DNA from: a virus
Lineage: Duplodnaviria > Caudoviricetes
Reading direction: 5' to 3' (one strand)
DNA length: 64,000 bases
IMG/VR virus record: IMGVR_UViG_3300022591_000002
Position 1 is the first letter of the stretch. Each line of letters begins with the position of its first letter. Shown piece after piece: positions 11,701 to 60,975 of this stretch. The notes beneath the pieces are model-generated. The model was given only the letters and a program-made list of their open reading frames with translations, was not told where the DNA came from and made no database searches. A program made the position numbers and the translations under genes.

Positions 11701-14700
11701 GTTAACGCAGTAGCAGGATCAACTGGTTACGGCGGTACAGGTAGAACAAGATTAAAATTATCTCAAGTTGCAGGCACATTTACTGCCGGCGACACAATGT
11801 ACTATTCAGATCCACAAGGCAACATTTTAGGTAGCGGAGTAATTGCGGCTAATGATGGCACATACGTTTATCTAAATGGTCCAGCTTGGGGCTTTAGAAC
11901 ATCGAGTAATGGTACAGCAAAAGTTGTTACTCCATTTGGAGCCGTACAAACATCAACTAGCAACTACAAATTCAGTACAGCTAGTGCATTGTTTAACAGC
12001 GCAACAAGCGACTATCTACAGATCCTTAGCGACAGTACAATGCAATTTGGTACTGGAGCATATACAGTTGAATGTTGGGTTTACGTAACATCAATTGGTG
12101 CTACACAAACAATTTTTCAAAAGGGAAATCCAAATACCCCAGCAACAAGTTTTGGTTTAAGAATCAGTGCATCGGGTGTGCTAGTAGGTACAGACGGTAG
12201 TGCAGTATTAACTGGTTCAACTACACTAACAACAGGTGCATGGCACCATGTTGCCCTTGTTCGTGATACAAACAGCAACAAGGCTACTGTATTCTTAGAC
12301 GGTAATATTGAAGCAAGTCAAACTGGAGTTACTTACAGCGTAAGCAACACAGATCCATTTGACATTGGTGGTGATTCTACAAATGGCCAATGGTACTTCA
12401 CTGGTAACATTGATGAATTCCGTGTAAGTAGTGTTGTTCGTTATACAAGTTCCTTTACACTAGCAAGTAATCCGTTTGGATATGATTCTGTTACTGTGTT
12501 CTTAATGCACATGAACGGCGCCAACGGCGGCACACAGTTTGATACTGATGCTACAGAAACACAAAATGTTTACTCTATTGGTAACAGTCCTGCAAGTGCT
12601 AAAAATATTGCTCTAGCAGACTACCATCAGTTTGGTGCTGAACTACGTTGTATTGGTAGTGCGGCAGTCTTTGGTAACCAAGGTGTTATTGCCAATGGTA
12701 CTGGTACAGACTTAAAACTAATCAGCTTCAACATGAGCTTTGTTGGAGCAGGCGGCGACATTACAGATGATGCAAGTTTAACAGTACAAGCCAACGAAGT
12801 ATTACAACAAAACGGAGGTAAAGTATTCTATCAAACAGTTGACCAAAGCGGTGACTTCCGTGTTGGCAATAGTTTCTATGTTAACCAAAACACAGGTGCA
12901 GTTAGCTTTGGTAATGCAAACTTAAACTTAACAAGTTTAGCAAGCCTATTGATTAGCAACGGCACAAACTCAACAAGTATTTTACCAGGTAGCGTACAAG
13001 CCGGTGAAATGTTAATCAGTGGTAACACACTAGGTAGTGCGGCTGGTAACATTAATATCAACCCAGCTGGTACAATGACTATTGTACAAAGTAACTTACA
13101 AGTTAACGGCAATTTTAGTGTTCAAAATTTAGTAGTTCCAGGTAGTGCAGATTCAACATCAACAACTACTGGTGCTATTCAAGTTGTAGGTGGTATTGGT
13201 GTTGGTCAAAGTATATTTGTTGGAAGCACATTATCAAGCACAACAACTGTAGCCGGTAACGCAATCACAGTTAATACCGGTGGTATCGGTGCGCAAACAT
13301 TATACATTGCTAGCTATGGTTACATCGGCAATGCTAAGATTGTTACAACAGCTACCATTGGTTCAGCACTTGGTGGTATTGTTCCTAATGCATTACACAT
13401 TACAAACTTAGGCCAGTCAACTAGCACAACAACTGGTGCATTGGTTGTAGATGGTGGCGTAGGTATTGGTGGCAATTTAACAATTGGTGGTAACTTAAAT
13501 CTATTAGGCGGTGGTTCTGTATTAACAAACATCACTGCTACTACTGACAACTACATTGGTGCAAGTGTAACTAAATCAGGTACTACTTCAACAATCAACA
13601 TTGTTAACTTAGGTGTTCAATCGTTGTTTGGTGGCTCTGATATTTCTTTATCATCAAACACTGGTACTATTACTGTTAACAACGTAAGTACACTTGATAC
13701 AGTTCTTGGCAGAGGTAGTTCGTCAGCTCAAGCTGTTTCATTAACAAATGCAAGCGTTAGCACAACTACTATTGCAGGTAATGCATTAGCAGTAACTGGC
13801 GGCATTGGTGCATCAAACTTATATATTAGTAATGCTGGTTTCATTGGCGGATCACAAATTGTAACATCTTCTACAATTGGTACACTAGTTGGCGGGCAAG
13901 CAATTACCAATCCGTTACAAATTACTAGCACATCATCGACTGCATTAAATATTCCTAACGGCGGCGCCTATGTTGGCGGCAACGTTGTAATTGGCGGCAG
14001 TTTAAACGTTGCAGGTACTGTTACAAGTATCAACAGCACAAGTGTTGACATTGGTAACAAAGTTGTATTCTTAAGCACATTATCTGCAAGTTCGATATTA
14101 GCACAAGGTGCTGGTATTGTTATAGGTAAAGATGACGGCATTGAAGCCGACCGTTGGGCAAGTTTATTATTTGATGGTCAAGGTGGCGGTTATGGTGGTA
14201 ACTGGATTAGTAAAGGCGGATTTGTTCCGTCCGCAGACAACTACTTTGATTTAGGTTCTAATGCTACTCAATGGCAGAATCTATATGTTAAGACTGTAAA
14301 CTTTAACGCCGCAGTATCTACAAGTACAGTATTCAACACCGCAACTATTGCAGGCAACAGCATTGCAACAACTGGTGGTATCAGTGCGGCGCACTTATAC
14401 TTGAGTCAAGACGGTTGGATTGGTACAGCACGTATTATTACAACTGCTAACTTAGGTAGCTACACAACCGTATTTGATGGCGGCACAATTCATAGTCCGT
14501 TAATTGAACTAGACCCAACACAGTCTGCAAGTACAGCAACAGGCGCCCTACAAGTAGTAGGTGGTGCAGGTATTGGTAAGAATTTATATGTTGGTGGCAA
14601 CTCAATCCACTTAGGTAACGTATACACAACTGGTACAACATTTGCTTCTGCAATTTACGACAATAACAATCGTGTTATTACTGCTATCAACGTAAATGCA

Positions 14701-17700
14701 GGTACAGGTATTAGTTTAAGTACAGCACAGTTAACAGGTCCGTCTGCTACATTAACAATAACAAACGTTGGTGTAACAGCAATCACAGTAGGTGCTGGTC
14801 TAAGTGTAAATCAATCAACCGGTACAGTTAACATTGTTAACACTGGTGTTACAAGTATTACCGCAGGAACAGATATTGTAGTTTCAGCAAGTGCTGGCGA
14901 TATTACAATCTCAGATACAAGTACACTTGATTCAGTAACACAGCGCGGTGCTACTACAACTGCTACTGTTGTATTCAACAACGCGGCATTTACAACTACA
15001 AGTATTGCAGGCAACGCAGTTCAAGTAACAGGCGGCCTTGGTGTTAATAACTTGTATGTACAAACAAGCGGTTATATCAACGGCGCACAAATTGTTACAA
15101 CATCAACATTGAACAGTTTCAGTGGCGGTGATATTAACAACGCACTACGTATTACTAATGCAACAGAAGCATCAAGCACACAAACAGGTGCATTCCAAGT
15201 TGTTGGTGGTGCTGGTTTTGGTAAGAGCGTATGGGTAGGCAAAGACCTACACGTATTAGGTGATCTATACATTGACGGAGTTAACACAATCGTTAACTCA
15301 ACTAGCATCCAGACTGGCGATAAGACAATTAGTCTAAGTACAGCTTCATTAGTATCTGGAAATGCTACAGGTGCTGGTATCAAGATTGGTCCAAGCACAA
15401 GTTCATATGCTACATTCTTGTTTGACGGTAATTCAAGCTGGTCATCAGGTGCATCAGTAGTTCCTGCAACAAGTCTAAACTATAACTTAGGTTCTCCAAG
15501 TCTAGTTTGGAGTAACGTATATTCAGCTAACGCAATTATTTCAGCAAATACACAAGCTACTACAACGCAAACCGGTTCATTACAGCTTGCAGGCGGCGCA
15601 GGTATTGGTAAACAAGTAGTTGTTGGTGAAACAGTTAACATCCTTGGCAACTATTCTAACACAACAACACAAGCTGGTAACAGTTTAGGTGTTGCAGGTG
15701 GCGGTTACTTTGGTGGAACATTGAATGTTCAACAAGGTGCATGGGTTGGTGGATCACAAGTTGTTACAACTTACAACCCATTTGACACAATCTTCATAAG
15801 TCAAACACAATCAACAAACACACAAAGTGGTGCATTCCAAGTTGTAGGCGGTGTTGGTATTGGCGCTAACTTAAACGTTGGTGGCCTAGTAAGTATTGCC
15901 AATAATACAGAAAGTACAACTACACCTAGTTCTAACGCACTTGTAGTTACCGGTGGTATCTACGCTGACATGATCAACATCAATACAATTGGTGTTATCA
16001 ACGGTGGTATAATTATCACAACAGCAACCATTGGTAACTTTGCGTTCAACGGTGGTGTAATCAATAAACCAATTAACATTACTACAACTACCGTAGCATC
16101 TAGCAGTATTACTGGTGCGTTAACTGTAACAGGTGGTGTTGGTATTGGTGGCGCAACATTTGCTTACGGTACATTTACAAGTCAGACAACAGCATCATTT
16201 AGATATATCCAAATGAGTACTGCCACAATTACTGGCGTGTTCTCAAGCACAAGTGCTTTATCTAATACATCAACTATTGTTGGTAACGCAATTCAAGTTG
16301 CTGGCGGTATTGGTACAAACTACCTAAACATCAAGACAGCAGGTTGGTTAAATGGTAGCCCAATTCTAACAGCTAACACATTGAATAGTTACTCTGGTGG
16401 TACTATTAACAATGCGTTGATTATCAACACAGCAACACAATCTCTAAACACAACAACTGGTGCTTTACAAGTTGTTGATGGTGGTGTTGGTGTTGGCGGC
16501 AATATGTGGATTGGCGGAAGCTATAACTTTATTGATCCAACATTTACTGCACAAGGTTACTTTGGTCCATCAGTTGATTTGTCAACTGTACAGATGGGTG
16601 CGTTTGCAAACTTACCAGCAGTTATCCTTTCTAATAACGCAGAAGTAGCAAGATTCAAAACTGGCTTAACTGGATTTGGTAATAACAATCCAGTCTTTGG
16701 TTTAGACTTAGTTTCTCCTAGCGCACAAGCAGGTTCTGCAAATACAATCAGTAACATGTTGAGCTTAGTTTCAACTAACTGGCAAGCTAACTTCAGTGCA
16801 GATGTACCAACATTTGAAATTACACAAACAAGTCGCGATAGTGGCAACACATTTGAAAACTGGATTTCAGTTGGTGAACAAGCCGCAGGTGTTGCACAGG
16901 CATTAGTATTTGCAGGCGGTAACTATTATAACAATGGTGGAACTCCAACTGTAACTGAATGGGCAAGATTTACTCCTGCTGGCAACTTTGTTGCACAGAA
17001 TCAAATTCAAGCACAAACAGAAGTTATTAACAGCTCTAACAACAGCACAAGTACAATCGCAGGTAATGCGTTACAAGTTACTGGTGGTATTGGAGCCGCA
17101 AAACTATATCTAAGTCAAGAAGGTTGGATTGCTGGTGGTAAGATTATTACAACAGCAAATGCTAGCTCTATTGCGTTCAACGGCGGAACAATTACAACTC
17201 CGTTGTACATTAATACAACAACACAATCTAGTTCAAACATCACAGGTGCTTTAAGAGTACAAGGTGGTGCAGGTATACTACTAAACTTGAACGTTGGCGG
17301 TGTTGCATCAATGAACGGTGGTTTAGTAAGTGTCAACAACACATTTACTAACATTAACACTATTACATTAGGTAGCTTAAACGTTGGCGGTAACGTAACA
17401 TTTACAACTAGCACAGCGGCCGCAGGCGTTACAGCAGGTAATGCAGGCGTTGTAGTAACCGGCGGTGTTGGTATCAACAAGAACTTAATTGTAAACGATA
17501 CTGCAACAGTATTAAGCTCAATAGCAAGCACAACAACTATTGCAGGTAACGCATTACAAGTTACTGGCGGTATTGGTGGTAAGAGCATTTACTTAACAGA
17601 CGTTGGTTATATCAACGGCGCACAAATTGTTACAAGTTCTACAATCAATGCATTCAGCGGTGGATCAATTTCTAATGCATTGAACCTATCTAACTTAACA

Positions 17701-20700
17701 AATGCAGTTAACACATCAACTGGTGCGTTAACAGTAGCAGGCGGTGTTGGTATTGGTCAGGACCTATGGGTAGGTGGAGGTTTACACCTATTAGGCGATC
17801 TATTTGTAGATGGCACACAGACTATCATTGACAGCACACGTATTCAAACTGGTGACAAAGTAATTTATCTAAGCACTGGTTCGGCAAACGCTACTCTTGC
17901 AAGTGGTTCAGGTCTTGCAATTGGTGCTCCGGGTACTGTATTTGCAAGTTTACAATTTGACGGTATTAGCACATGGCAATCTGGTGCAAACTTATCTCCA
18001 ACAACAAGTGGCGGATTTAACTTAGGTAGCGCATCACTTCCATGGAACACAGAATACGTTCAATTCTCAAGAATTAACGGCGGTACACAATCGACAACTG
18101 CAACCAACGGTACACTAGTTGTAACTGGAGGTGTTGGTGTAAGTGGAAACTTAAACATTGGTACAAGTGCTACAATCGCAAGTCAATTGTTTAACCTAGC
18201 ACAAGCTAACGTAACACAGAACGCATTATATGTAGCAGGCGGCATTGGCGCACAATACTTAAACATTGCTAATACTGGTTATGTTGCAGGTAGCCCAATT
18301 ATTACAGCGGCTAACATTGCAGGCTATCAGTTCAGCGGTGGTACAATCACTGGTATCTTAACAAGTACAAACACAACAAGTTCGTTATCAACACAAACTG
18401 GTGCTGTACAAATTAGAGGTGGTATTGCTACAGGCGACAACTTATGGGTTGGCAATGCCGCAATGATCTTAGGCACAACATCAAGTGCAGTATCAACAAC
18501 AAGCAACGCATTGCAAGTTGTAGGTGGCATTGGTGCTTACAGTATCTATCTAGCAAACAACGGTTACATTAACGGATCACAAATTGTTACAGCGGCAACA
18601 ATTAACAATTTCTCCGGCGGTACAATTAACAGTTCATTAACAGTTAATAGTTCTACACAAGCAGTAAGCACAACAACTGGTGCCTTCCAAGTCACAAACG
18701 GTGGTATTGGTATTGGTGGTAACATTTGGGCAGGTGGCTACATTAACGTTGGCGGAACTGCTAACCAAGCAGTTACACTAGGTACAACAGCTACAGGTAG
18801 CTTACAAGTCTTAGGTGGCGCAAGTATTACTGGTGGTATGAACATTGGTGGTTCAACTTACTTTGCACAGAAAGTAGGTATTGGTACAATTACTCCAGGT
18901 GTAAGCCCAGGTGCCGCAACATTAGAAGTTAACGGTGACGCAGTATTTGGCGCAGGCAACAGCTCACGTGTACAAATTACTAACGGTGGCGGCTCAAACG
19001 CAATTTACGAAGTTCAAGGTAGTGAAACAGGCTATCGTTGGCAAATTGGTAGTAACCTAGTTACTATTGGTGTTGCCGGTATGGGCTTCATGAACCAGAA
19101 CCAAACACTATCAGGTGGTGGTGTTGCAATTGGTGCAGTAAGTGGTGCATCTGGCAACTTAGGTTTATATACATCAAACGGTAGTGCGTTAACATTACGT
19201 GTACAAGTTGATACTTCTGGTAAGATGATTATTGGCGGTAGTGGTCCAACTACTCCGTTAGCTAAGTTAGACGTTCGCGGTGATTTACGTTTACAATCTG
19301 GAAATACAGAACACGTTATCCTATCAAACGGTGCAAGCCAGTACGTTGCTGTTGACTTTACAAGAACTAACACAGGTAACTCAGCAGACTTCCGTGTTGC
19401 AATTAACGGTAGCGCAGGTAACTTTAGTCCTAACGCACAAGCAGGCGATGCAACATTAAGCTTCTCTAGCAACATTTATTTTGCTAACCAGAACACATAC
19501 GAAGTAGCTAAAATTACTCCAACAGGATTAGTAATTACAACAGCTACAGTAGCAAGTTCTGCAAGCTCAGGTGCTTTGCAAGTACAAGGTGGTGCAGGTG
19601 TAACAGGTAACTTCTACGTAGGTTCTGCTTCAAGCTTCACTGGCGCAGTTTATGTTGCGTCAGCAGTTGCTACTACAAGTAGTAAATCACCTAACGCATT
19701 AGTTGTTGCTGGTGGTATTGGTGCCGCAAGTCTATGGTTAGATAACCCAGGTTGGATTAACGGCTATCAAATTGTTACAACAGCTAACATTGGTTCGTTT
19801 ACTGGTGCGTTCAACGGCGGTACTGTAACTAACCCAATTTACATTAACAACACAACTAACGCAACATCAACAAGCACAGGTGCGTTATACACAGTAGGTG
19901 GTATTGCATCATCTAAAGATTTGTGGGTCGGCGGCAATGCCACAGTAGTTGGTTCAACAACACTACAATCTACATTAGGTGTAAGCGGTGTTGCAACCGT
20001 TTACAGCACAGCGTCTAGCACAGTTGGTACAGCAAGCAACGCATTAGTTGTTATTGGTGGACTAGGTGTTGCAAGTACAATTTACTCAACAGGCGACCAT
20101 TACATTGGTGGTATGCGTGTTGGTTTAGGTGGGGGCGCAGTAGCAAGTAACGTTGCAATTGGTGCTGGTGCAATGACATCAGCGGCCAGCGGAACATATA
20201 ACATTGGTATTGGTTCTAACGCTTTAACAAGTTTAAGCTCTGGTAACTACAACATTGGTATTGGCTTACAAGCCCTACAAAATGCTGGTGCTACAGTTAA
20301 TAACGTAGCAATCGGTACACAGGCAATGAACGGTGGTTCACCAGGTAGCTCAGGTGTTGCAGTTGGTTACCAAGCAGGTCAGTATGCACAAGGTAACTAT
20401 ATTGTTGCTATTGGTCAAGGCGCACTAGCTGGTGCTGGTGTAACTAACGCAGGTTCAAGCAACATTGGTATTGGTTATCAAGCAGGTAACGTTATTACTA
20501 GCGGTGGCAGAAACATAATTCTTGGTTATCAAGCTGGTCTAACATTAGCTGGCGGATCACAGAACGTATTAGTCGGTTACCAAGCTGGTCAATCAATTAC
20601 ATCGGGTGGCAACAACGTTGTTATTGGTGGCAACAATGGTAGCGGTATTAGTTCAAGTAATAACAACGTTATTATTTCCGACGGTTCTGGCAACATTGTA

Positions 20701-22275
20701 TTCAGCGCAAACAGCTCACAAGTTGTAACAGTTCCTGGCGTAACTAACTTTACAAATGCTACAACAGCAAGCTCAACAATTACTGGTGCAGTTATTATTA
20801 CTGGCGATATGGGTGTACGTGATATCTATGCACGTAACATCTATGCTAACGGATCATTAGTTGGTTCTGGCGGCGGCGGCAGTGGCGGTTCTTCAACAAG
20901 TACCCCATACATTGCAGTAACAAGTGGCACTATTGCTACATCAACTGGTACTGGCGCACTACAAGTATACGGTGGTGGTTCATTATATGGTAACTTGTTT
21001 GTTGGACAAAAACTAATTGTTAACAAACTGTACGACGACAGCGGTTCTTACGTACAAGTTGGCGGACCAATTGAAAGCACAAATAACGTATCTGGTGCGG
21101 CACTATATGCGGCAGGCGGCAATAACTTATTGTACTACTCACAAGACTGGTCAGTAAGTAACAGCAACTGGACTAAGGTAAACAGTTCAGCAGGTTTAAA
21201 TGCTACAACAAGCCCAGATGGTACAACTAACGCTACGTTATTAACAGAATCAGGTGCAACAGGTAACCACTACTTTAACCAAGCGTTAACTGGTGTAACA
21301 GGTCCTGTAACATTTAGTATCTATGCTAAGGCAAATACACGTACTTACATTGCGCTGTATGTAAACGCAGGCGGTTCACAACACGGTGTTTACTTTAATC
21401 TAAGCACTGGTGCATACCAAGTTGGCCCAGCACCGTTGTACAACACAACTGGTAAGATCGAGGCAGTTGGTTACAACGGTTGGTATCGTTGTTCTATTAC
21501 AGTTTGGGCAATACCAGGTGCGGCAATTACTACATTTGGTGTATACTCTGCACAGGGTTACGACACATTAATCAGTGGAACTAATACAAGTTTCACAGGT
21601 ACAGGCGGTGCGGGTGCTTACATTTGGGGCGCACAAGGTGATCCAGGGTACCTAGCAGGTCCATACCAAGTTACAACTAACGCATTAGTAACAGCAAATA
21701 ATAACATTTATGCTGGTGGTAGTTTATATATTGCTAACACAGCAACAGTTAATAACGCACAAGTTGTTACTACTGCTACATTGATGACTAACTTAGGATT
21801 GTATGGCTCAACTCCAAACACTCTAATTATCAACAATGCAACAAACTCAACAAGTACCAACACAGGTGCTCTACAGGTTGTTAACGGTGGTATTGGTATT
21901 GGTGGCAATGCTTATGTTGGCGGAACACTATATGCTACTGCTAAGAGCTTCTTAATTGATCACCCAACTAAGAAAGGATATAAATTACAGTATGGTAGTT
22001 TAGAAGGTCCAGAAAACGGCGTATATGTACGCGGTAAGTTAAATGGTCGAGTAATTGAACTACCAGACTACTGGAACTCATTAGTTGATATGGACACTAT
22101 TACAGTTGACCTAACACCAATTGGTAAGTTCCAGAAACTATACGTTGAGAAGATTGAAGGCAACAAGATTTATGTTGATAACGACAGCATGTTTAGCGGC
22201 AATGTTCAATGCTTCTACACAGTATGGGCTGAACGTAAAGATATTGATAAACTCAACACAGAGTTCAAAGGATAA
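8731..22275 (+). CDS. Giant multidomain tail-fibre/adhesin protein (4514 aa)
   Basis: Starts with DFIVKNGLVV and has dozens of TGAL-x-V-x-GG-x-G repeats. Pectin-lyase/beta-helix-like segment (NVYYVQSNGSDSNDG, from ~11101), LamG/concanavalin-like domain (~11920-12540), YadA/Hep-Hag-like NxAIGxxA repeats (~20140-20700), carbohydrate-binding-like domain (~21121-21680) and a C-terminal KSFLIDHPTK...LEGPE...LPDYW domain. Confidence 0.8.
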   Translation: MAYNDDFIVKNGLVVRATNLANYNSTSTQTGAITTPGGAGIGGNVFVGGQLNVLTSATLAELRVSDVAKVLSSAINTATISPDGNALQVTGGIYAGSINIGGLGFIKGSQILTQADGFKGGVISDPLVINTNTNSTSTTTGALSTPGGIGIGRDLWVGGFISATNAIYSLGYQVPTLLTVQAGTGLAGGGTLSATNATITLSNAGVLSLTGGTGINVNTATGNITITNIGVQQVTAGSDIQLSSNTGSVLISDISTLQSVTTRGNNTNQIINVLNWTSSTGVYNTTSNAFNVLGGASFGSINVANTSYQGGAQIVTTSTINQFIGGTIQNPLRVANSTTSVSTQTGALIVDGGVGIGQDVYIGKTLNVAGNATIYGSLSVLGTYTVVTVNSTETFIVSPLVDIGTGRDNAPLTINDTFDRGIVVHYNTGSNTTFDNHAFFGRVSASGEFTYLTDVQPGGLTEILTNPLAGGNLGTAKFGQLKLAGGTPATGYGTGDLIVTGGGSFNGSLYSTAIYDYGRRVLNNASIVGSVGVGVGVTTTASGVTISLTNTGVTSIIPGTGILANGTVNSQTGVVTIANSGVLSILQAAGQDSDIGLTWSTGNAGNVLITNQATLATVTRRGNTSSYQIILSNAGQSVTNSSTNALYLSGKGGIYAGSIMLETTSTINGSEILTTATINQSLGGIIPNPIHITSAVGSVSTQTGALIVDGGVGFEKNLNVQGPVVINQSLSVLAGVSSFAGDTSVGGNLYTTGTQFVGTITSPNANLYLNTVPGTGNVYANSVNLNYSLANVYYVQSNGSDSNDGLRASTAFLTVAKALSVVTSGGTVLIGPGTFTENFPLTIPQGVTVKGAGLRATVIQPTSGSNTQDGFLLNGETTLSDLVVSGYYNPGYGVKFATNAKITTKSPYVERVSFITKGTTTSSTDPYGYAAGNAGNGAKLDGSVLNSSSLEPTMLFNEVTFIVPNATGMYMTNGVRAELLNGFFYFASKAVNAVAGSTGYGGTGRTRLKLSQVAGTFTAGDTMYYSDPQGNILGSGVIAANDGTYVYLNGPAWGFRTSSNGTAKVVTPFGAVQTSTSNYKFSTASALFNSATSDYLQILSDSTMQFGTGAYTVECWVYVTSIGATQTIFQKGNPNTPATSFGLRISASGVLVGTDGSAVLTGSTTLTTGAWHHVALVRDTNSNKATVFLDGNIEASQTGVTYSVSNTDPFDIGGDSTNGQWYFTGNIDEFRVSSVVRYTSSFTLASNPFGYDSVTVFLMHMNGANGGTQFDTDATETQNVYSIGNSPASAKNIALADYHQFGAELRCIGSAAVFGNQGVIANGTGTDLKLISFNMSFVGAGGDITDDASLTVQANEVLQQNGGKVFYQTVDQSGDFRVGNSFYVNQNTGAVSFGNANLNLTSLASLLISNGTNSTSILPGSVQAGEMLISGNTLGSAAGNININPAGTMTIVQSNLQVNGNFSVQNLVVPGSADSTSTTTGAIQVVGGIGVGQSIFVGSTLSSTTTVAGNAITVNTGGIGAQTLYIASYGYIGNAKIVTTATIGSALGGIVPNALHITNLGQSTSTTTGALVVDGGVGIGGNLTIGGNLNLLGGGSVLTNITATTDNYIGASVTKSGTTSTINIVNLGVQSLFGGSDISLSSNTGTITVNNVSTLDTVLGRGSSSAQAVSLTNASVSTTTIAGNALAVTGGIGASNLYISNAGFIGGSQIVTSSTIGTLVGGQAITNPLQITSTSSTALNIPNGGAYVGGNVVIGGSLNVAGTVTSINSTSVDIGNKVVFLSTLSASSILAQGAGIVIGKDDGIEADRWASLLFDGQGGGYGGNWISKGGFVPSADNYFDLGSNATQWQNLYVKTVNFNAAVSTSTVFNTATIAGNSIATTGGISAAHLYLSQDGWIGTARIITTANLGSYTTVFDGGTIHSPLIELDPTQSASTATGALQVVGGAGIGKNLYVGGNSIHLGNVYTTGTTFASAIYDNNNRVITAINVNAGTGISLSTAQLTGPSATLTITNVGVTAITVGAGLSVNQSTGTVNIVNTGVTSITAGTDIVVSASAGDITISDTSTLDSVTQRGATTTATVVFNNAAFTTTSIAGNAVQVTGGLGVNNLYVQTSGYINGAQIVTTSTLNSFSGGDINNALRITNATEASSTQTGAFQVVGGAGFGKSVWVGKDLHVLGDLYIDGVNTIVNSTSIQTGDKTISLSTASLVSGNATGAGIKIGPSTSSYATFLFDGNSSWSSGASVVPATSLNYNLGSPSLVWSNVYSANAIISANTQATTTQTGSLQLAGGAGIGKQVVVGETVNILGNYSNTTTQAGNSLGVAGGGYFGGTLNVQQGAWVGGSQVVTTYNPFDTIFISQTQSTNTQSGAFQVVGGVGIGANLNVGGLVSIANNTESTTTPSSNALVVTGGIYADMININTIGVINGGIIITTATIGNFAFNGGVINKPINITTTTVASSSITGALTVTGGVGIGGATFAYGTFTSQTTASFRYIQMSTATITGVFSSTSALSNTSTIVGNAIQVAGGIGTNYLNIKTAGWLNGSPILTANTLNSYSGGTINNALIINTATQSLNTTTGALQVVDGGVGVGGNMWIGGSYNFIDPTFTAQGYFGPSVDLSTVQMGAFANLPAVILSNNAEVARFKTGLTGFGNNNPVFGLDLVSPSAQAGSANTISNMLSLVSTNWQANFSADVPTFEITQTSRDSGNTFENWISVGEQAAGVAQALVFAGGNYYNNGGTPTVTEWARFTPAGNFVAQNQIQAQTEVINSSNNSTSTIAGNALQVTGGIGAAKLYLSQEGWIAGGKIITTANASSIAFNGGTITTPLYINTTTQSSSNITGALRVQGGAGILLNLNVGGVASMNGGLVSVNNTFTNINTITLGSLNVGGNVTFTTSTAAAGVTAGNAGVVVTGGVGINKNLIVNDTATVLSSIASTTTIAGNALQVTGGIGGKSIYLTDVGYINGAQIVTSSTINAFSGGSISNALNLSNLTNAVNTSTGALTVAGGVGIGQDLWVGGGLHLLGDLFVDGTQTIIDSTRIQTGDKVIYLSTGSANATLASGSGLAIGAPGTVFASLQFDGISTWQSGANLSPTTSGGFNLGSASLPWNTEYVQFSRINGGTQSTTATNGTLVVTGGVGVSGNLNIGTSATIASQLFNLAQANVTQNALYVAGGIGAQYLNIANTGYVAGSPIITAANIAGYQFSGGTITGILTSTNTTSSLSTQTGAVQIRGGIATGDNLWVGNAAMILGTTSSAVSTTSNALQVVGGIGAYSIYLANNGYINGSQIVTAATINNFSGGTINSSLTVNSSTQAVSTTTGAFQVTNGGIGIGGNIWAGGYINVGGTANQAVTLGTTATGSLQVLGGASITGGMNIGGSTYFAQKVGIGTITPGVSPGAATLEVNGDAVFGAGNSSRVQITNGGGSNAIYEVQGSETGYRWQIGSNLVTIGVAGMGFMNQNQTLSGGGVAIGAVSGASGNLGLYTSNGSALTLRVQVDTSGKMIIGGSGPTTPLAKLDVRGDLRLQSGNTEHVILSNGASQYVAVDFTRTNTGNSADFRVAINGSAGNFSPNAQAGDATLSFSSNIYFANQNTYEVAKITPTGLVITTATVASSASSGALQVQGGAGVTGNFYVGSASSFTGAVYVASAVATTSSKSPNALVVAGGIGAASLWLDNPGWINGYQIVTTANIGSFTGAFNGGTVTNPIYINNTTNATSTSTGALYTVGGIASSKDLWVGGNATVVGSTTLQSTLGVSGVATVYSTASSTVGTASNALVVIGGLGVASTIYSTGDHYIGGMRVGLGGGAVASNVAIGAGAMTSAASGTYNIGIGSNALTSLSSGNYNIGIGLQALQNAGATVNNVAIGTQAMNGGSPGSSGVAVGYQAGQYAQGNYIVAIGQGALAGAGVTNAGSSNIGIGYQAGNVITSGGRNIILGYQAGLTLAGGSQNVLVGYQAGQSITSGGNNVVIGGNNGSGISSSNNNVIISDGSGNIVFSANSSQVVTVPGVTNFTNATTASSTITGAVIITGDMGVRDIYARNIYANGSLVGSGGGGSGGSSTSTPYIAVTSGTIATSTGTGALQVYGGGSLYGNLFVGQKLIVNKLYDDSGSYVQVGGPIESTNNVSGAALYAAGGNNLLYYSQDWSVSNSNWTKVNSSAGLNATTSPDGTTNATLLTESGATGNHYFNQALTGVTGPVTFSIYAKANTRTYIALYVNAGGSQHGVYFNLSTGAYQVGPAPLYNTTGKIEAVGYNGWYRCSITVWAIPGAAITTFGVYSAQGYDTLISGTNTSFTGTGGAGAYIWGAQGDPGYLAGPYQVTTNALVTANNNIYAGGSLYIANTATVNNAQVVTTATLMTNLGLYGSTPNTLIINNATNSTSTNTGALQVVNGGIGIGGNAYVGGTLYATAKSFLIDHPTKKGYKLQYGSLEGPENGVYVRGKLNGRVIELPDYWNSLVDMDTITVDLTPIGKFQKLYVEKIEGNKIYVDNDSMFSGNVQCFYTVWAERKDIDKLNTEFKG
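15070..15100 (+). repeat. Perfect 31-nt direct repeat, copy 1 (copy 2 at 17605-17635)
   Basis: GGTTATATCAACGGCGCACAAATTGTTACAA is identical at both sites within the 4514-aa gene. Confidence 0.85.
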
Positions 22276-49966: not shown

Positions 49967-50418
49967 TGTGGTATAGTAAGGTTAGTAGAGATATCTCGCA
50001 CTTGCCTGACTGTATAGAATATTATTATTCTCAGTTAGACGATGCTAGAAAGGAAGTTAAGGTATACGGCAATCTTGAGAAAGCCAGTGCCTCACTTCCT
50101 GGCATCGTCGAACAACGTTTCAATCAACTCCAGGAAATAGAAGCAATCCTGGAGTATTTGAACATAGAATTACGTAGAACACGTAGTAAAGCATTTAAGA
50201 AGTATCTGGAAAATTATCAACGAGCTTTGAGTAGCAGAGACTGCGAAAAGTATGTTGACGGTGAGGCCGACGTAGTCGATCTAGAGAAAATTGTTAACGA
50301 GTTTGCCTTGTTACGCAATCAATGGCTAGGGATTATTAAAGGTCTTGATATTAAACAATGGCAAATGAGTAATATTATCAAATTACGAACTGCCGGAATG
50401 GAAGATGTACAGATCTAA
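49966..50418 (+). CDS. uvsY: Recombination mediator UvsY
   Basis: 150-aa helical protein (ALSSRDCEKYVDGEADVV...KGLDIKQWQMSNIIKLRTAGMED) downstream of uvsX. Confidence 0.75.
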   Translation: MWYSKVSRDISHLPDCIEYYYSQLDDARKEVKVYGNLEKASASLPGIVEQRFNQLQEIEAILEYLNIELRRTRSKAFKKYLENYQRALSSRDCEKYVDGEADVVDLEKIVNEFALLRNQWLGIIKGLDIKQWQMSNIIKLRTAGMEDVQI

Positions 50419-51635
50419 TGTATATAGAAGATTTGATATTGCGAACTGCCGGTCACGGCAAGTGGTTGTTTGAACCAGCCTTCACACTTTCTACTGATTT
50501 TGAAAAACGTTTTATCGAAAGCGTTGCAGAACAGATAGATAGAGGCGAAGCACTGACTGAAAAGCAGGCAAATCTTGCACTCAAGCTACTAGGTAAGGTT
50601 GAACCACAACTTGTTGCCTACTTCAAAACCAAGACTTGGGATTTATTGAATCCAAGTTTCAAAAAACAATTTAGAACACTACTGCCTGTGTCAAGCATTG
50701 AGGTTGACAAGTCAGAAATTCCAGGAAAAATTGTTGTACGATTCCCATACCACGAAGCAACCATCAAAGATATCAAAGATTTCAAAAATCAAAACACTGG
50801 GTTTAACGCAGATTGGCATCCTGACAAAAAAGCATGGATTTTTGCTCTACGTGAAGACTGTATTAAATTTTTACAGACAAAAGTTGTACCGCGTGGTTTT
50901 ACAACCGACGAAAATTTCAAGGAATTAGTCGTACAAGTTGAAAATATTGAAAATAACCTAGAAAGTTATTTGCCTATGGTTGTGCTTGAAGAAGGCAAAC
51001 CAAAATTTATCAATGTTTTTGACAATGTCCCTCAACCAGCAGGCAATGATATTGTTCACGCATTATTTTTAGCCCGTCAATTTGGCATTACAACCTACAG
51101 TGATGAAATTAGTCAGTGGATTGAGGGAAATATTGAAAATCCCATCACAAAATCCTTGATCAACGCAACCTACTCAAAACAGGGGTTGTGGGTAGATTCA
51201 AAAACTCACACAGTTGACACGTTTAAGGACATTGTTGACTACGGACAACCTTTATTGATTGTTGTTCCAGGTGGTAGTGAATACAAGAGTCTTAAAGAAT
51301 GGCACGAATTTGTAAAATCTTGTGGAATTGAGGACAAAGACATCAGTGTCATGTTTAGACTGCCAAATGAAGGCAAGGGCGATTTCAATCTCTACGTCAA
51401 AGAACATAATTTGAATAATGAAATTGCTGGCAATACCAAAGTAGTGTTTGTTAGTGTAAAAATTCCTAAGCCATTAGTGAAGACAAACATCAAATTTAAT
51501 GCTATAATAAATTTAGGGTTCTATTTGAATACACATTACACGATGGAGACGTTAATTCGTTCAAGTTCAACGTTATTTTTCTATACAGATACAGAACCAA
51601 AGGTGAACAGATACAATACATATGGCTACCGCTAA
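50418..51635 (+). CDS. Hypothetical protein with HARP-like segment, upstream of UvsW
   Basis: IVVRFPYHEATIKDIK...WHPDKKAWIF resembles HARP-type domains. Overlaps the uvsW start. Confidence 0.45.
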   Translation: MYIEDLILRTAGHGKWLFEPAFTLSTDFEKRFIESVAEQIDRGEALTEKQANLALKLLGKVEPQLVAYFKTKTWDLLNPSFKKQFRTLLPVSSIEVDKSEIPGKIVVRFPYHEATIKDIKDFKNQNTGFNADWHPDKKAWIFALREDCIKFLQTKVVPRGFTTDENFKELVVQVENIENNLESYLPMVVLEEGKPKFINVFDNVPQPAGNDIVHALFLARQFGITTYSDEISQWIEGNIENPITKSLINATYSKQGLWVDSKTHTVDTFKDIVDYGQPLLIVVPGGSEYKSLKEWHEFVKSCGIEDKDISVMFRLPNEGKGDFNLYVKEHNLNNEIAGNTKVVFVSVKIPKPLVKTNIKFNAIINLGFYLNTHYTMETLIRSSSTLFFYTDTEPKVNRYNTYGYR

Positions 51636-53876: not shown

Positions 53877-54321
53877 TATCAAACGTGAATTGAATGCAGT
53901 AGACAAGAAGATCTATGACTTCTATGATAAACTAACTCCTGAAGAACAGAAGGAGTTTAGCCCCTATGTATTGATGCGATACGTTGCTAACGTTCAAGGA
54001 GATCCAGATATTCAAGCATGGTTCTTAGAAATGACCAATGAGTTAATTAACAAGAATCATTGGGACCTCAGTAAGAATCACAAGGCATTGTTGTGGAAAC
54101 TGTTTGCGGCATGTGGTGCAGGAGTGCCATGTTATCATCCTTATCTTAAAGCAGGATCAAAAGAAAAAGCAGTTAAGATTGAAAAGTTATTGGCAGAATT
54201 ATATCCAGCATACAAGCTAGAAGATATTAAAATGATGGCCAAGATGATGACAAAAGAAGACAAGAACGAACTATTTGATAAGATGGGCTTTGACAAAAAG
54301 CAACGGAAAGAATACGAGTGA
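53866..54321 (+). CDS. Probable clamp-loader small subunit (T4 gp62-like)
   Basis: The FSPYVLMRY...NE..N...L...HPYLK pattern and length fit gp62-like proteins, and it lies in the replication operon. Confidence 0.5.
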   Translation: MALDIKRELNAVDKKIYDFYDKLTPEEQKEFSPYVLMRYVANVQGDPDIQAWFLEMTNELINKNHWDLSKNHKALLWKLFAACGAGVPCYHPYLKAGSKEKAVKIEKLLAELYPAYKLEDIKMMAKMMTKEDKNELFDKMGFDKKQRKEYE

Positions 54322-55013
54322 TGCAATTAGCTGACCAGCCTTTTGTTTGTACACATTGTGGTAAAAGATTCATGCAGGAAAAAACTCTGTATGCCCACAT
54401 GTGCGAGCCTAAGCGTAGGTTTATGCAACGAGATGAAAAACGAGTACAGGCAGGCTTCTTTGCGTTCAACAGATATTACAGACTAGTACAAGGTGCAAAG
54501 AAAGACAAAACATATGAAGAGTTCTGTAAGAGTGCTTACTACAACGCTTTCGTTAAATTTGGCAGTTTTGTCAACAATGTTAATCCCCTATATGCTGATA
54601 AGTTTATTGATTACGTTATTAAGAGCGGAGTAAAACTTGACCATTGGTGTAGAGATGAATTGTATGAAACATATCTATACGAGATGCTTAAGGTTGAACC
54701 TGTTGAAAGTGCAATACAACGAGCATTAACAACAATGATGGATTGGGGTGAAGCAACAGACGCTCGATGGAACCATTATTTTAGATACGCTAGTCAAAGT
54801 AGAATTGTACAAAATATACGTGATGGCAAAATTAGTCCTTGGATATTCTTAAACTGTGAATCCGGTAAGGAACTTCTTACAAGTTTAAATCAGGATCAAA
54901 TGGAACTTATTACAAGTGCCATTGACTTGCAGTGGTGGGTAGGACATATTAAGAAATTCAAAGCAGATGCAAATGTAGTCAAGGAAGTTTGTAGGGAAGC
55001 AGATATACCATGA
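54318..55013 (+). CDS. Hypothetical replication-operon protein with N-terminal classical zinc finger
   Basis: FVCTHCGKRFMQEKTLYAHMC fits C-x2-C-x3-F-x5-L-x2-H-x-C. Confidence 0.65.
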   Translation: MMQLADQPFVCTHCGKRFMQEKTLYAHMCEPKRRFMQRDEKRVQAGFFAFNRYYRLVQGAKKDKTYEEFCKSAYYNAFVKFGSFVNNVNPLYADKFIDYVIKSGVKLDHWCRDELYETYLYEMLKVEPVESAIQRALTTMMDWGEATDARWNHYFRYASQSRIVQNIRDGKISPWIFLNCESGKELLTSLNQDQMELITSAIDLQWWVGHIKKFKADANVVKEVCREADIP

Positions 55014-55351
55014 GTAAGCCACTTCCATATTCAAACGCTCTTGCAAATTTTTGTAAAGCATTTGAAGCTATTCCTGAGCCTAGCCAAAGAAGATTTCGTA
55101 GAATGGTCAGTAGTCCAATTAATTGGGAACAAGATTCGAGCATTCCATACGGGTCTGCAAAATATGAAGAAGTCGAAGCCGTAGCAATACATATTCCAAT
55201 TTATAAGTTAGATGAATTTGTAAATTCTATTCCAGAACAACATTATAAAGAAATGGAGATACGTATGCGTGTACCAGCAGTTAAGCTAGCATATGAGCGT
55301 TATCAAATGTTGTTAAAGATGTGTGGTGGAGATTACGATGCCGGATATTGA
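55010..55351 (+). CDS. Hypothetical protein coupled to the mini-DnaE gene
   Basis: 113 aa, overlapping both neighbours. Confidence 0.55.
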   Translation: MSKPLPYSNALANFCKAFEAIPEPSQRRFRRMVSSPINWEQDSSIPYGSAKYEEVEAVAIHIPIYKLDEFVNSIPEQHYKEMEIRMRVPAVKLAYERYQMLLKMCGGDYDAGY

Positions 55352-55913
55352 TATTGACTTTGCTGATAGAAATTTAATCTTAGATAAGATTAAACACATC
55401 CCTGCGGCAAGAATTGATGGTGACATCAAGAAGCACAATACAGGAGTTTACTGTCATCAAATTCCAATGAATCCGCTAACAGGACTTGCCAGCATTGACT
55501 ATGAAGAAGCAGAAGAACGTCAGTACTTCAAAATAGACTTTCTAAATGTAAACATATATGCAGGTGTTAAAAATGAAGAACACCTTAAAAAACTAATGGA
55601 GACGGAACCGCTATGGGATCTACTGGAACAGGACGACTTTACGAATCTGCTCTTTCACGTGAATGGGCACGGGAGCGTATTGAGAAAAATGAAGCCGAGA
55701 AGTATAGAACAGCTTGCGGCCGTACTGGCCGTCATAAGACCAGCAAAGAGACATTTGATAGGGAAACCGTGGGACGAAGTACTACAGGATGTTTGGATCA
55801 AGCCAACGACTGATGAATATTACTTTAAGAAGGCTCACGCAGTTGCTTATGCGGCGGCCATTGTAGTGCAGATGAATTTAATTTGCGAAGGTATTAGCTA
55901 CGGGTTTTCTTAG
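55338..55913 (+). CDS. Minimal DNA polymerase III alpha (DnaE/family C)-like catalytic core
   Basis: After a GGAG SD the ORF starts MPDIDIDF (DnaE PDxDxDF, two catalytic Asp). Then KHNTGVY (HAAGVV), FKIDFLNV (third Asp, KxDFLG), PRSIEQLAAVLAVIRP (P..FEDM.AL.AL.RP) and YFKKAHAVAY (GFNKSHSAAY). Only 191 aa. Confidence 0.85.
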   Translation: MPDIDIDFADRNLILDKIKHIPAARIDGDIKKHNTGVYCHQIPMNPLTGLASIDYEEAEERQYFKIDFLNVNIYAGVKNEEHLKKLMETEPLWDLLEQDDFTNLLFHVNGHGSVLRKMKPRSIEQLAAVLAVIRPAKRHLIGKPWDEVLQDVWIKPTTDEYYFKKAHAVAYAAAIVVQMNLICEGISYGFS

Positions 55914-56292
55914 GAGCACGTACTAATTGTATTGATTTGCGTTTGATACGCTTTTCTGCTATTTCGCTCAAATTTACACTTGGCCCAAATATTAGTGTTA
56001 CATCTTTGCTGTTAAAAGTTTTGATGTAGGGCCTAAAAATAGTCATTTCTGCTTTTAGGAAAATGTTGATAGGAATCTTACGATTACTTTCCCACCACCA
56101 TGTATCACCTAATTCTAAGAAACTTTGCTTTTCAAAATCTGTACGGATTATGCCGAAATCGTAAATGCTAGTAACGTTATTATCTAAGTTTAAGATGATG
56201 CCGATATACTCTTCTTCGTTGCATTTTATACAACTGATAAAGGGAAAATTCTTCTGAAATTCTTGGTCTTTGTTACTCTTTGATATCGCCAT
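55894..56292 (-). CDS. Conserved hypothetical protein
   Basis: 132 aa (FPFISC...EYIGII.N.D..VTSIYD...WWWESNRKIPI). Minus-strand TATAAATA at 56321-56328. Confidence 0.65.
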   Translation of the reverse strand: MAISKSNKDQEFQKNFPFISCIKCNEEEYIGIILNLDNNVTSIYDFGIIRTDFEKQSFLELGDTWWWESNRKIPINIFLKAEMTIFRPYIKTFNSKDVTLIFGPSVNLSEIAEKRIKRKSIQLVRAPKKTRS

Positions 56293-58246: not shown

Positions 58247-59678
58247 TCAAATTACCAACTATACCTACGACATTCAAAAACTTTATATCGAAATGTTTAT
58301 GAGCGATGCTGACACGTTCATGCGTTGTGCAAACATCTTTGAGCCTGAGAATTTTGACAGAAAATTGCAGGAACCTGCGAGCTTTATTAAAAAGTATGTA
58401 GACGAATATAAGGTAATGCCGGAGCCGCAGATTGTTAATGCCAGCTGTGGATTGGACTTGAATCCAGCGGCATTGCCAAAAGAAAACTACGAATGGCTGA
58501 TGAATGAATTTGAGAATTTTTCACGTCATAAGGGGTTAGAAAGGGCAATTTTAAAATCAGCTGACTTGCTGGAAAAAGGCGAGTACTTTCCAGTTGAGAA
58601 ATTAATCAAAGACGCAATTCAGATTAGTTTGAACAAGGACATGGGTACAAACTACTTTGAAGATCCGAGACAGCGACTTGAAAGTTTGAAGAACTCAAAC
58701 GGTCAAATTAGCACTGGTTGGCCATCAATTGACAAGAAATTGTATGGTGGATTTAATCGAGGTGAATTGAACATTTGGTGTGCGGCGTCAGGTGGCGGTA
58801 AGTCATTGTTCCTTGCAAACTTAGGATGTAACTGGGCCTGTAACGGTTTAAATGTTTTATACTTAACATTCGAATTGAGTGAAAATTTAGTGGCGATGCG
58901 TATGGATAGTATGATGACTGACATTCCAACTCGCGAAATTTTTAAGAGTCTTGATGACGTTGAACTTAAGGTTAAGATGCTGGGCAAGAAGTCTGGTAGC
59001 GTACAAATCAAGTATATGCCATCAGGTAAAAATGCAAATGACATCCGTGCATATTTGAAAGAATATCACGTGAAAAAAGGCTATGAGCCAGACATTATTT
59101 TGATTGACTATTTGGACTTGATGATGCCTATGTCAGTTAAAGTTAGTCCAAGTGACTTGTTCGTTAAGGACAAATATGTGTCAGAAGAGTTGCGTAACTT
59201 GGCAATGGAAACACAGGCAATTGTGTGTACTGCTAGTCAGTTAAATCGCTCGGCTGTTGAAGAAATTGAATTTGATCACAGTCATATCTCAGGTGGCTTA
59301 TCTAAGATTCAAACAGCAGATAACGTGATTGGTATTTTTACAAGTCGTGCAATGAAGGAACGTGGACGCTATCAAATCCAGTTTATGAAGACACGTAACT
59401 CATCAGGTGTAGGTCAGAAAGTTGACTTGGAATTTGACGTTGATACACTGAAAATTAAAGACTTGGGTGATGATGAGCAGGGTAATGCAGGTAGTGGATT
59501 TAAATCACAGGGCTCAACTATCTATGAAAACCTAAAGAGAACTTCTGCAAATATTGATCAATCTACTGGGGAAATTAAAGATCCTAATGAAGGCGTATCA
59601 GTAAACAAGATTAAGACTAAAACTGGACAGGCAGGCATTCACGCTATCCTAGCAGGCTTAAATTCTGAGAAAGATTAA
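58239..59678 (+). CDS. Replicative DnaB-like helicase (T4 gp41-like)
   Basis: STGWPSIDKKLYGG, Walker A ASGGGKS, LIDYLDL, TASQLNR and KTRN. Confidence 0.93.
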   Translation: MADQITNYTYDIQKLYIEMFMSDADTFMRCANIFEPENFDRKLQEPASFIKKYVDEYKVMPEPQIVNASCGLDLNPAALPKENYEWLMNEFENFSRHKGLERAILKSADLLEKGEYFPVEKLIKDAIQISLNKDMGTNYFEDPRQRLESLKNSNGQISTGWPSIDKKLYGGFNRGELNIWCAASGGGKSLFLANLGCNWACNGLNVLYLTFELSENLVAMRMDSMMTDIPTREIFKSLDDVELKVKMLGKKSGSVQIKYMPSGKNANDIRAYLKEYHVKKGYEPDIILIDYLDLMMPMSVKVSPSDLFVKDKYVSEELRNLAMETQAIVCTASQLNRSAVEEIEFDHSHISGGLSKIQTADNVIGIFTSRAMKERGRYQIQFMKTRNSSGVGQKVDLEFDVDTLKIKDLGDDEQGNAGSGFKSQGSTIYENLKRTSANIDQSTGEIKDPNEGVSVNKIKTKTGQAGIHAILAGLNSEKD

Positions 59679-60259
59679 AATAGTTCAGCTATTTTATTAT
59701 TAACACATTCTTCAATGGCACGTTGCCATTGCTCTTCGCCGGATCCAGACAATACTAGTTCAGTGGTTGCTTTCGTAGTTAACCATTGATGGTCTGGAGT
59801 CCACGGCGGAATTCCACTTTGTTCGCCATCTAGTTGCCCAGCACTCCAAGCCGCTAATCCAACCCCAATGCGCCACATTTCTGGACCTTCATCTGCGGCT
59901 ATTGCGGCCAACACACTCATCTCGCCCGTAATACCTAAATCTTCAGTAATTTGAATAGTACTGCTGGAAAACCAATCCATCGTGTGTACTACGTGTACAC
60001 GAGTTTGTTCTACAGGGCCACCTAAATAAACTGGTCCGCCCTTACCCGGAATTTTTAACAAACGTTCTGGATAATCTATACCTGCCGCACTCATAACTGT
60101 TTGCATGCCAACTTGTGATGCTTCTTTGTTGACCACAACTCCCCACGCTCCGGCTGGTCCGTGTTGTGCTATTATTACTACTGATTTTTGAAAGTGTCCG
60201 TTACTATTTTTAGGTTGTGAAACTAACACTTGTCCCGCTAGGCTTTTAAATGTACTCAT
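59675..60259 (-). CDS. YqgE/AlgH (DUF179) family protein
   Basis: F.KSVVII.QH...GAWGVVVNK, YLGGPVEQ and G.A.WSAGQL..E motifs. Confidence 0.85.
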   Translation of the reverse strand: MSTFKSLAGQVLVSQPKNSNGHFQKSVVIIAQHGPAGAWGVVVNKEASQVGMQTVMSAAGIDYPERLLKIPGKGGPVYLGGPVEQTRVHVVHTMDWFSSSTIQITEDLGITGEMSVLAAIAADEGPEMWRIGVGLAAWSAGQLDGEQSGIPPWTPDHQWLTTKATTELVLSGSGEEQWQRAIEECVNNKIAELF

Positions 60260-60288: not shown

Positions 60289-60975
60289 ATGAACATCTTT
60301 GAGTTTCAACCGCCCGTAGCAGTACACAATAGACTTAATCCTAAACTATGGATTAATCGTCGTCTACGTAAAGACGTATACAAAGCCCTAATGCGTATTG
60401 CAGGCGAGTTTTACAAGAGCCTAAACATCAATGTCAAGCCCGTTGATATATTAATTACAGGAAGCCAAGTTAACTATAACTACGGCCCGGATTCGGACTT
60501 AGACCTTCACCTAGTAGTAGACTTTAGAAGCGTAGACTGCGAAGGTGGAGCACGTGAACTGTTTGATACAAAGCGCAATATTTGGAACCAGGATCACGAT
60601 ATTACTATTCACGATATAGATGTAGAATGCTATGTCGAGGATATCAACGATAAGACTGTTAGTGCTACATATAGCCTACTGCACAATCGTTGGTTAGAAG
60701 AGCCCCCAGAACCTGAAACGGATTTTGATGAAGATCTAATCAAGAACTATACTCAGCACTGGGAACATAAAATTGATCAAGCTGTTGAAACCGGTAGCTT
60801 GAGCAAGTGTCGTAAAACACGCATGGACCTGAAGAAGTTTAGAGTTAAAAGTCTAGCCAAGGGCGGCGAGTATGATGAGGGCAATCTTGCTTTCAAAGCA
60901 CTTCGCAACTCGGGCTATATTGAAAAACTAATGTCAGCTATTCGTCACTACGATGATAAACGTTTAAGTATATAA
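60289..60975 (+). CDS. Pol-beta superfamily nucleotidyltransferase
   Basis: ITGSQVNYNYGPDSDLDLH (GS...DxD) and VECYVED, followed by a helical C-terminal domain (NLAFKALRNSGYIEKL). Confidence 0.8.
   Translation: MNIFEFQPPVAVHNRLNPKLWINRRLRKDVYKALMRIAGEFYKSLNINVKPVDILITGSQVNYNYGPDSDLDLHLVVDFRSVDCEGGARELFDTKRNIWNQDHDITIHDIDVECYVEDINDKTVSATYSLLHNRWLEEPPEPETDFDEDLIKNYTQHWEHKIDQAVETGSLSKCRKTRMDLKKFRVKSLAKGGEYDEGNLAFKALRNSGYIEKLMSAIRHYDDKRLSI

Follow-up and report, generated by a model that had tools for sequence, protein, structure and literature searches.

In group 2.2 jumbo phages, a minimal Pol III α split over two genes has been described from sequence, with the proposal that it cooperates with the family B polymerase (PolB) or acts in repair (Iyer et al., 2021, Viruses 13:63; PMC7824862). 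A gene of this kind lies in a 64,000-nucleotide (nt) stretch of DNA from an uncultured tailed phage (Caudoviricetes; IMG/VR record IMGVR_UViG_3300022591_000002), the whole of which is called the window below. Here, a 191-residue open reading frame (ORF) most probably encodes subunit B of a two-subunit minimal Pol III α of about 350 residues, an accessory enzyme of group 2.2 jumbo phages (Rak2/121Q/PA5oct/Atu_ph07-type); we put the probability of this reading at about 0.88. The gene is a further member of the family already described in 2021 and so is not novel in kind.

The window protein (B hereafter; the other half of the split enzyme is called A) resembles that family, whose C-terminal unit corresponds to PHROG 11778, in its length of about 190 residues starting at PDxDxD, its conserved residues, its gene neighbourhood and, apparently, the phage group in which it occurs (42–55% identity to Phosso, PA5oct-like phages, Atu_ph07, 121Q and PBECO4). 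It differs from the members described by Iyer et al. (2021) in that it comes from an uncultured phage and is at most 55% identical to the protein of any isolate. Rare A-B fusions, the metagenomic size of the family and a supported complex prediction go beyond the passages of that paper used here. The isolated phages with a B homologue, 96 records at 42–55% identity, are all large jumbo phages of the Rak2/121Q/PBECO4, PA5oct, Atu_ph07, Phosso and XacN1 type. The GenBank records of relatives carry the annotation 'DnaE-like DNA polymerase III alpha' on both halves; the caveat of the initial annotation of the window, that short DnaE-like entries might already exist for jumbo phages, was correct.

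Homology, fold and conservation of the B protein

The five DnaE motifs that had been read from the 191 residues are all present and in the order claimed: PDIDIDF (residues 2–8), KHNTGVY (32–38), FKIDFLNV (64–71), PRSIEQLAAVLAVIRP (120–135) and FKKAHAVAY (163–171), with the protein starting directly at the catalytic motif. From motif order, we take H33-N-T-G36 within KHNTGVY to be the counterpart of HAAG. The PHROG 11778 profile ('DNA polymerase') matches B residues 3–184 over profile positions 8–193 of 197 with an E value of 3.7e-66. Only one Pfam family, DNA_pol3_finger, matches B, at 14.9 bits, below the cut-off of 22; a match to DNA_pol3_alpha or DNA_pol3_finger above the gathering score, which marks a canonical DnaE, is lacking. 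Single-sequence searches of the PDB gave weak hits (E 0.18–2.3), though correctly placed, and a profile search was needed: a profile built from 82 B homologues finds E. coli DnaE at E 4e-5, with collinear matches to residues 399–418 (PDFDVDF), 539–641 (KFDFL ... FRPG) and 743–768 (FNKSH).

The AlphaFold2 (AF2) model of B, with a mean predicted local distance difference test score (pLDDT) of 96 and a predicted template modelling score (pTM) of 0.88, has the C-family palm fold with the catalytic triad. A Foldseek comparison with DnaE structures, one of the checks put forward at the outset, returned Pol III α as the first 14 PDB hits. In VIA-align, B superimposes on Taq Pol III α residues 461–841 with Z 9.8 and a root-mean-square deviation of 3.6 Å over 187 residues, followed by Geobacillus PolC (Z 9.4), Mycobacterium tuberculosis DnaE1 (9.3) and E. 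coli DnaE 400–781 (8.6), with 184–187 residues aligned, while the first unrelated chain scores 3.3. PHROG, profile and structure (Z 8.6–9.8) all agree with the initial description of a drastically reduced DnaE derivative that keeps its catalytic triad. About 185 residues of B replace about 380 of DnaE, so that the thumb has been deleted along with a good part of the fingers, much as had been claimed; B has no PHP, HhH, clamp-binding or OB/tau region and ends at the equivalent of E. coli residue 781.

Across 82 diverse B homologues, down to 28% identity, D3, D5, K65, D67 and P135 are invariant and D7, H33, G36, R134, K137, K164 and H167 are at least 90% conserved; conservation of the three catalytic aspartates, D3, D5 and D67, had been named beforehand as a test of the idea. 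The family is widespread, with at least 8000 B clusters at 90% identity in public metagenomes, and has been kept in jumbo phages of both Gamma- and Alphaproteobacteria; 433 B-family representatives at 50% identity have E values of 1e-3 or better, and B homologues are 187–202 residues long in 120 clusters, among the matches listed. Close B homologues from IMG/VR contigs have pairwise ratios of nonsynonymous to synonymous substitution rates (dN/dS) of 0.02–0.14. These data bear on whether B is merely a functionless, decaying remnant of a captured host dnaE, as might be suspected of a fragment-sized piece of a large gene that Pfam barely detects. The low dN/dS, the invariance of the catalytic residues in 82 sequences, the thousands of clusters that share length and ends, the synteny kept from Pseudomonas to Sinorhizobium phages and the gene's own ribosome-binding site leave a pseudogene fragment with a negligible probability. 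The pattern is unlike the decay that would have spoken against the initial proposal, and the conservation indicates that the B gene is not a decaying fragment.

The probable partner gene A in relatives

The segment of the palm that precedes PDxDxD in DnaE was sought in four relatives, the isolates Phosso and PAC2 and the two largest near-complete metagenomic relatives, which in IMG/VR are the long contigs closest to the window phage. A Pfam search of the whole Phosso and PAC2 records finds a second small gene, A, which matches PF07733 (DNA_pol3_alpha) at positions 21–97. The A proteins of the relatives have 160–177 residues and PF07733 as their sole Pfam match; in Phosso and PAC2 (169–177 residues) the C-terminal end reads ...GVGRGSSVASYVLFLIG...EFL(N/K), and the protein stops just before the PDxDxD position of canonical DnaE. 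The metagenomic relative of 364.5 kilobases (kb), 100% complete according to CheckV, has a B 72% identical to that of the window and an A gene of 161 residues; the other, of 270 kb, has a B 74% identical and an A gene of 168 residues. A and B are far apart in all four genomes: the distance is 224 kb in Phosso and 44 kb in PAC2, and comes to about 180 kb in both metagenomic relatives.

In a single-sequence PDB search, A residues 88–160 align to E. coli DnaE 320–392, and the GVGRGSS loop is invariant in the A family. The A model has a pLDDT of 86 and Pol III α as its first structural match. With at least 7940 clusters in public metagenomes, A equals B in abundance, and the two co-occur in isolated phages, where the A/B counts by host genus are almost the same (Escherichia 34/34, Pseudomonas 11/11, Klebsiella 10/11, Erwinia 8/8, Salmonella 8/8, Xanthomonas 4/4); the A search additionally hits phages with a canonical DnaE or PolC. 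The initial annotation had asked whether the missing DnaE domains might be found elsewhere. The N-terminal palm is, and it alone: PHP, the C-terminal domains, most of the thumb and much of the fingers did not turn up, as the DNA_pol3_alpha profile reveals no further DnaE piece in the four relatives, where no PHP-specific search was run. A family B polymerase, whose apparent absence from a T4-type replisome had been remarked upon, is present in all four.

Within the window, neither tblastn with the A proteins of relatives nor a six-frame search with the A profile finds an A half, tblastn with a relative's PolB finds no PolB, and a six-frame search with the B profile finds the single copy of B only. 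The abundant A protein P0210 was considered as the window phage's own A and rejected: it is the A of relative G001 and has no link to the samples of the window.

Two features of these genomes are recorded in passing. In relatives (L103, L097 and L098), A belongs to a conserved cluster together with MazG and a GroES/Cpn10-like gene; the cluster extends to an RFC-like AAA ATPase in L103, Phosso and PAC2, and includes dCMP deaminase and PhoH genes in L103 and PAC2. PolB is a single frame of 890–1013 residues in Phosso and the metagenomic relatives. In PAC2 (PA5oct-like), similarity to PolB is spread over two open frames, one of 825 and one of 379 residues (PP408249.1, 202949–206726; L005, L007, L009), possibly a PolB that is split or interrupted by an intron or intein.

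Evidence that A and B belong together

The split separates the GS loop from the DxD strand of one Pol-β-type core, so that neither half has a complete active site. Nature has joined the halves in single chains: P0342, P0391 and P0392, from separate assemblies, are A-then-B fusions of 375–376 residues with 78–81% mutual identity. Their A part is 37% identical to stand-alone A (E 7e-28), the DNA_pol3_alpha (PF07733) match crosses the A-B junction (residues 97–207), and their B part is most closely related to stand-alone proteins of 206–222 residues. All three come from short metagenome contigs, none longer than 5.9 kb; P0342 is encoded at L104:1066–2193.

A complex of the window B with the A of the relative whose B is 72% identical was predicted with an interaction prediction score from aligned errors (ipSAE) of 0.90, the best of three controls scoring 0.00; of 80 solved complexes 58 attain the same mark, as do 2 of 110 mismatched pairs. 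Contacts agree to 95% between runs, with a partner pLDDT of at least 89. In the predicted interface, A residues 122–135, which hold the GVGRGSS loop, pack on B residues 2–9, which hold PDIDIDF. The score is best read as a measure of likeness and not of binding.

These observations also bear on B acting by itself. With three catalytic aspartates and a confidently predicted fold of its own, the 191-residue protein could be imagined as a catalytically sufficient, stand-alone minimal nucleotidyltransferase, one of the possibilities raised by the initial annotation. This is very improbable, given that the rest of the Pol-β-type fold, namely the N-terminal palm with its GS motif, the GRGS arginine and the helices packing on the PDIDIDF strand, is found on a separate, co-occurring protein, that natural fusions join A to B, and that in the predicted complex the PDIDIDF strand is buried against the GVGRGSS loop of the partner.

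The proposed enzyme and its role

In the two-subunit enzyme favoured here, subunit A (about 160–177 residues, encoded outside the window) would contribute the first part of the palm, including the GVGRGSS nucleotide-binding loop, and would end ...EFLR at the point where canonical DnaE runs on into PDxDxD. Subunit B would contribute the metal-binding residues D3, D5 and D67, together with the RP and KxH elements of the fingers and a vestigial thumb. The two would dock non-covalently, with no intein, to form one Pol-β-type nucleotidyltransferase active site across both chains. The heterodimer would have no PHP, clamp-binding, HhH, OB or tau-binding module and no proofreader, which would leave the part of replicase to the phage family B polymerase. 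The initial annotation had likewise held that the protein is not a processive replicase, a view sustained by the absent modules and by PolB in all four relatives. Since clamp-binding, proofreading and tau modules are lacking and the relatives have PolB, a distributive accessory DNA polymerase is the most likely function: the mini-enzyme would carry out template-dependent synthesis to extend primers, fill gaps or serve repair. An accessory role is in keeping with the gene surroundings, with B beside primase and helicase and A beside an RFC-like ATPase, MazG and dCMP deaminase.

The kind of synthesis catalyzed by A+B may be judged from the residues that were kept. E. coli H760 lies in the steric-gate region for sugar selection, and retention of its equivalent in B argues for the use of dNTPs. 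The Pol-β fold underlies many non-templated transferases, and the strong truncation of thumb and fingers could suit such an enzyme: a terminal transferase, a primer-independent synthase or a nucleotide-signal synthase. This alternative is unlikely when set against the RP and KxH finger motifs, which are kept and nearly invariant. In the light of Pol III structures and E. coli dnaE sugar-selectivity mutants, these motifs contact template and dNTP and act as a steric gate. The placement of both genes among those for replication and nucleotide metabolism (primase and DnaB by B; RFC-like AAA ATPase, MazG and dCMP deaminase by A) likewise favours a polymerase over a non-templated transferase.

Several points weigh against an accessory polymerase made of A and B. 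The serine of FNKSH is replaced by alanine in the window protein. Because A and B are pieces of the fold of single-chain DnaE, the complex score may reflect solved structures of that protein. Neither an A half nor a PolB lies in the window, and their presence in this phage rests on relatives. About 200 thumb and finger residues that hold the primer-template and dNTP in Pol III are absent, so that efficient templated synthesis is not assured. Literature searches on the family returned genome annotations and no biochemical data; polymerase activity, template dependence and the accessory role are therefore what we infer.

A more specific proposal, that A+B is a working C-family DNA polymerase of about 350 residues which divides labour with PolB, for example by extending primase products before hand-off, is tentative and stands somewhat below even odds. 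If true, it would have parallels in DnaE/PolC of Bacillus and in Pol α/Pol δ of eukaryotes; no smaller C-family polymerase would be known, and A+B would serve as a model of the ancestral bacterial replicase. An active heterodimer would show what the minimal catalytic core of the bacterial replicase family is, provide an active site split over two chains without inteins, and reveal why phages with a T4-type PolB replisome retain a second, unrelated polymerase.

The B locus and its neighbours

The features of the locus are collected in Table 1. The start of the B gene overlaps the stop of the preceding 113-residue ORF (55010–55351) by 14 nt, and the position of the GGAG sequence inside the end of that ORF points to translational coupling. 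At its 3′ end, the gene overlaps the convergent ORF by 20 nt. Starting instead at the in-frame GTG (55323) would lengthen B by just 5 residues; a stop codon lies in frame 7 codons upstream of the ATG, from which the protein begins M-P-D-I-D. Gene callers chose the ATG, with the same 191-residue product, on 24 public metagenome contigs that carry the exact B protein; public contigs with this protein reach 317,687 bp. Megablast with the 10 kb around the B gene finds no match in the isolated-phage collection.

Table 1. Coordinates of the B gene, its sequence elements and its neighbours in the window
Feature	Position	Strand	Evidence
Gene for mini-DnaE subunit B (putative), 191 residues	55338..55913	+	ORF, PHROG 11778, AF2 model, VIA, dN/dS
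GGAG Shine-Dalgarno, 6 nt 5′ of the ATG, within the end of ORF 55010–55351	55328..55331	+	sequence read directly
Codons of D3-I-D5-I-D7: DxD metal-binding pair (E. coli D401/D403) and third Asp of PDxDxD	55344..55358	+	alignments to E. coli 399–418 and M. tuberculosis DnaE1 413–424
Codons of H33-N-T-G36, presumed counterpart of DnaE HAAG	55434..55445	+	H33 and G36 at least 90% conserved
Codons of K65-I-D67: third catalytic Asp (E. coli D555) and the lysine two residues earlier (E. coli K553)	55530..55538	+	aligned to E. coli 539–641
Codons of R134-P135, 'RP(G)' finger motif (E. coli R640-P641)	55737..55742	+	P135 invariant, R134 at least 90% conserved
Codons of K164 and H167 of FKKAH, FNKSH finger motif (E. 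coli K758/H760)	55827..55838	+	aligned to E. coli 743–768
ORF, 231 residues, N-terminal C2H2 zinc finger, PHROG 11058; conserved upstream neighbour, not a DnaE piece	54318..55013	+	
Convergent ORF, 132 residues, PHROG 11637; conserved neighbour	55894..56292	-	

The order UvsW, small ORFs, C2H2 protein, B, convergent small ORF, structural gene, primase and DnaB is that of Phosso and PAC2, both of which have counterparts of the C2H2 ORF and the 132-residue ORF, alike in size and position. PAC2 encodes a C2H2-annotated protein of comparable size directly 5′ of B; in Phosso, an ORF similar in size to the C2H2 protein lies upstream of B. The 113-residue ORF belongs to no PHROG or Pfam family, and PAC2 has no counterpart of it, its C2H2 gene abutting the B gene directly.

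This arrangement had led the initial annotation to propose a split polymerase completed by the coupled ORFs that begin at 54318 and 55010; in a weaker form, the C2H2 neighbour would be an accessory DNA-binding subunit of A+B. The overlap of the B start with the stop of ORF 55010, the position of the C2H2-type protein, or an ORF of its size, upstream of B in PAC2 and Phosso and the phage-wide distribution of the C2H2 family speak for a connection. Yet neither ORF resembles any part of DnaE, six-frame profile search included, the 113-residue ORF has no family and nothing stands in its place between the C2H2 and B genes of PAC2, and the missing DnaE segment lies elsewhere, in a protein that ends precisely at the split point. 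The idea of a split was right, as the A gene of the relatives attests; the choice of partners was not, and completion of the enzyme by the adjacent ORFs is quite unlikely. The C2H2 protein could be an accessory factor.

The window as a whole encodes tail, sheath and giant structural proteins, terminase, a gp32-type single-stranded DNA-binding protein (SSB), RecA/UvsX, UvsW, primase and DnaB, with a myovirus tail module; the T4-type replisome context first noted is borne out by the SSB, RecA/UvsX, the UvsW-type helicase, primase and DnaB. Other genes are noted here in their own right. Directly after the DnaB gene, an AlgH-like (DUF179) protein (E 1e-31) is encoded at 59675–60259 (-), in the same position on all public contigs of the phage. 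Just downstream of this DnaB/AlgH-like pair, an ORF of 228 residues at 60289–60975 (+) has a weak match to PF22600, the MTPAP-like central palm of poly(A) polymerases (E 0.0014; its 19 bits fall short of the cut-off of 27), and may be a second Pol-β-fold nucleotidyltransferase in the replisome region. Between the gene in the UvsY position and UvsW, an ORF of 405 residues (50418–51635, +), present on all contigs of the phage, has no Pfam or PHROG match. Upstream of tail-fibre-like genes, two giant ORFs at 2114–8659 (+) and 8731–22275 (+), of 2181 and 4514 residues, presumably encode giant structural or fibre proteins.

Comparison with known systems

Bacterial DnaE/Pol III α and PolC (PDB 2HNH, 3E0D, 5LEW and 3F2B) are the homologues against which the phage protein can be measured. 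Their palm is homologous to that of B, the three aspartates are identical, and the K-x-D, RP and KxH motifs are common to both and collinear. By contrast, the mini-enzyme is split, lacks the PHP, HhH, OB and tau-binding domains and the clamp-binding motif, has a thumb and fingers about 200 residues shorter, and would place its active site on two polypeptides, alongside a family B replicase.

In cyanobacteria, an intein-split DnaE is made as DnaE-n and DnaE-c, which are joined by protein trans-splicing. The phage system is similar in that a dnaE-derived enzyme would arise from two distant genes, but the break falls within the palm, after the GS loop and before DxD, instead of in the fingers. 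An intein-split DnaE was considered for the window gene and rejected: B has no C-intein at its N-terminus, and with A ending EFLR and B beginning M-P-D there is no room for intein halves. The phage halves, having no intein, must then work as a non-covalent heterodimer.

A functional analogy, and only that, can be drawn with family X polymerases (Pol β, about 335 residues): the mini-enzyme, about 350 residues in total, likewise combines a Pol-β-type palm with the lack of a proofreading or clamp module. By this analogy, its size and missing modules would be the profile of a short-patch gap filler, whereas in sequence and in its finger and thumb elements the mini-enzyme differs from family X and belongs to the C family.

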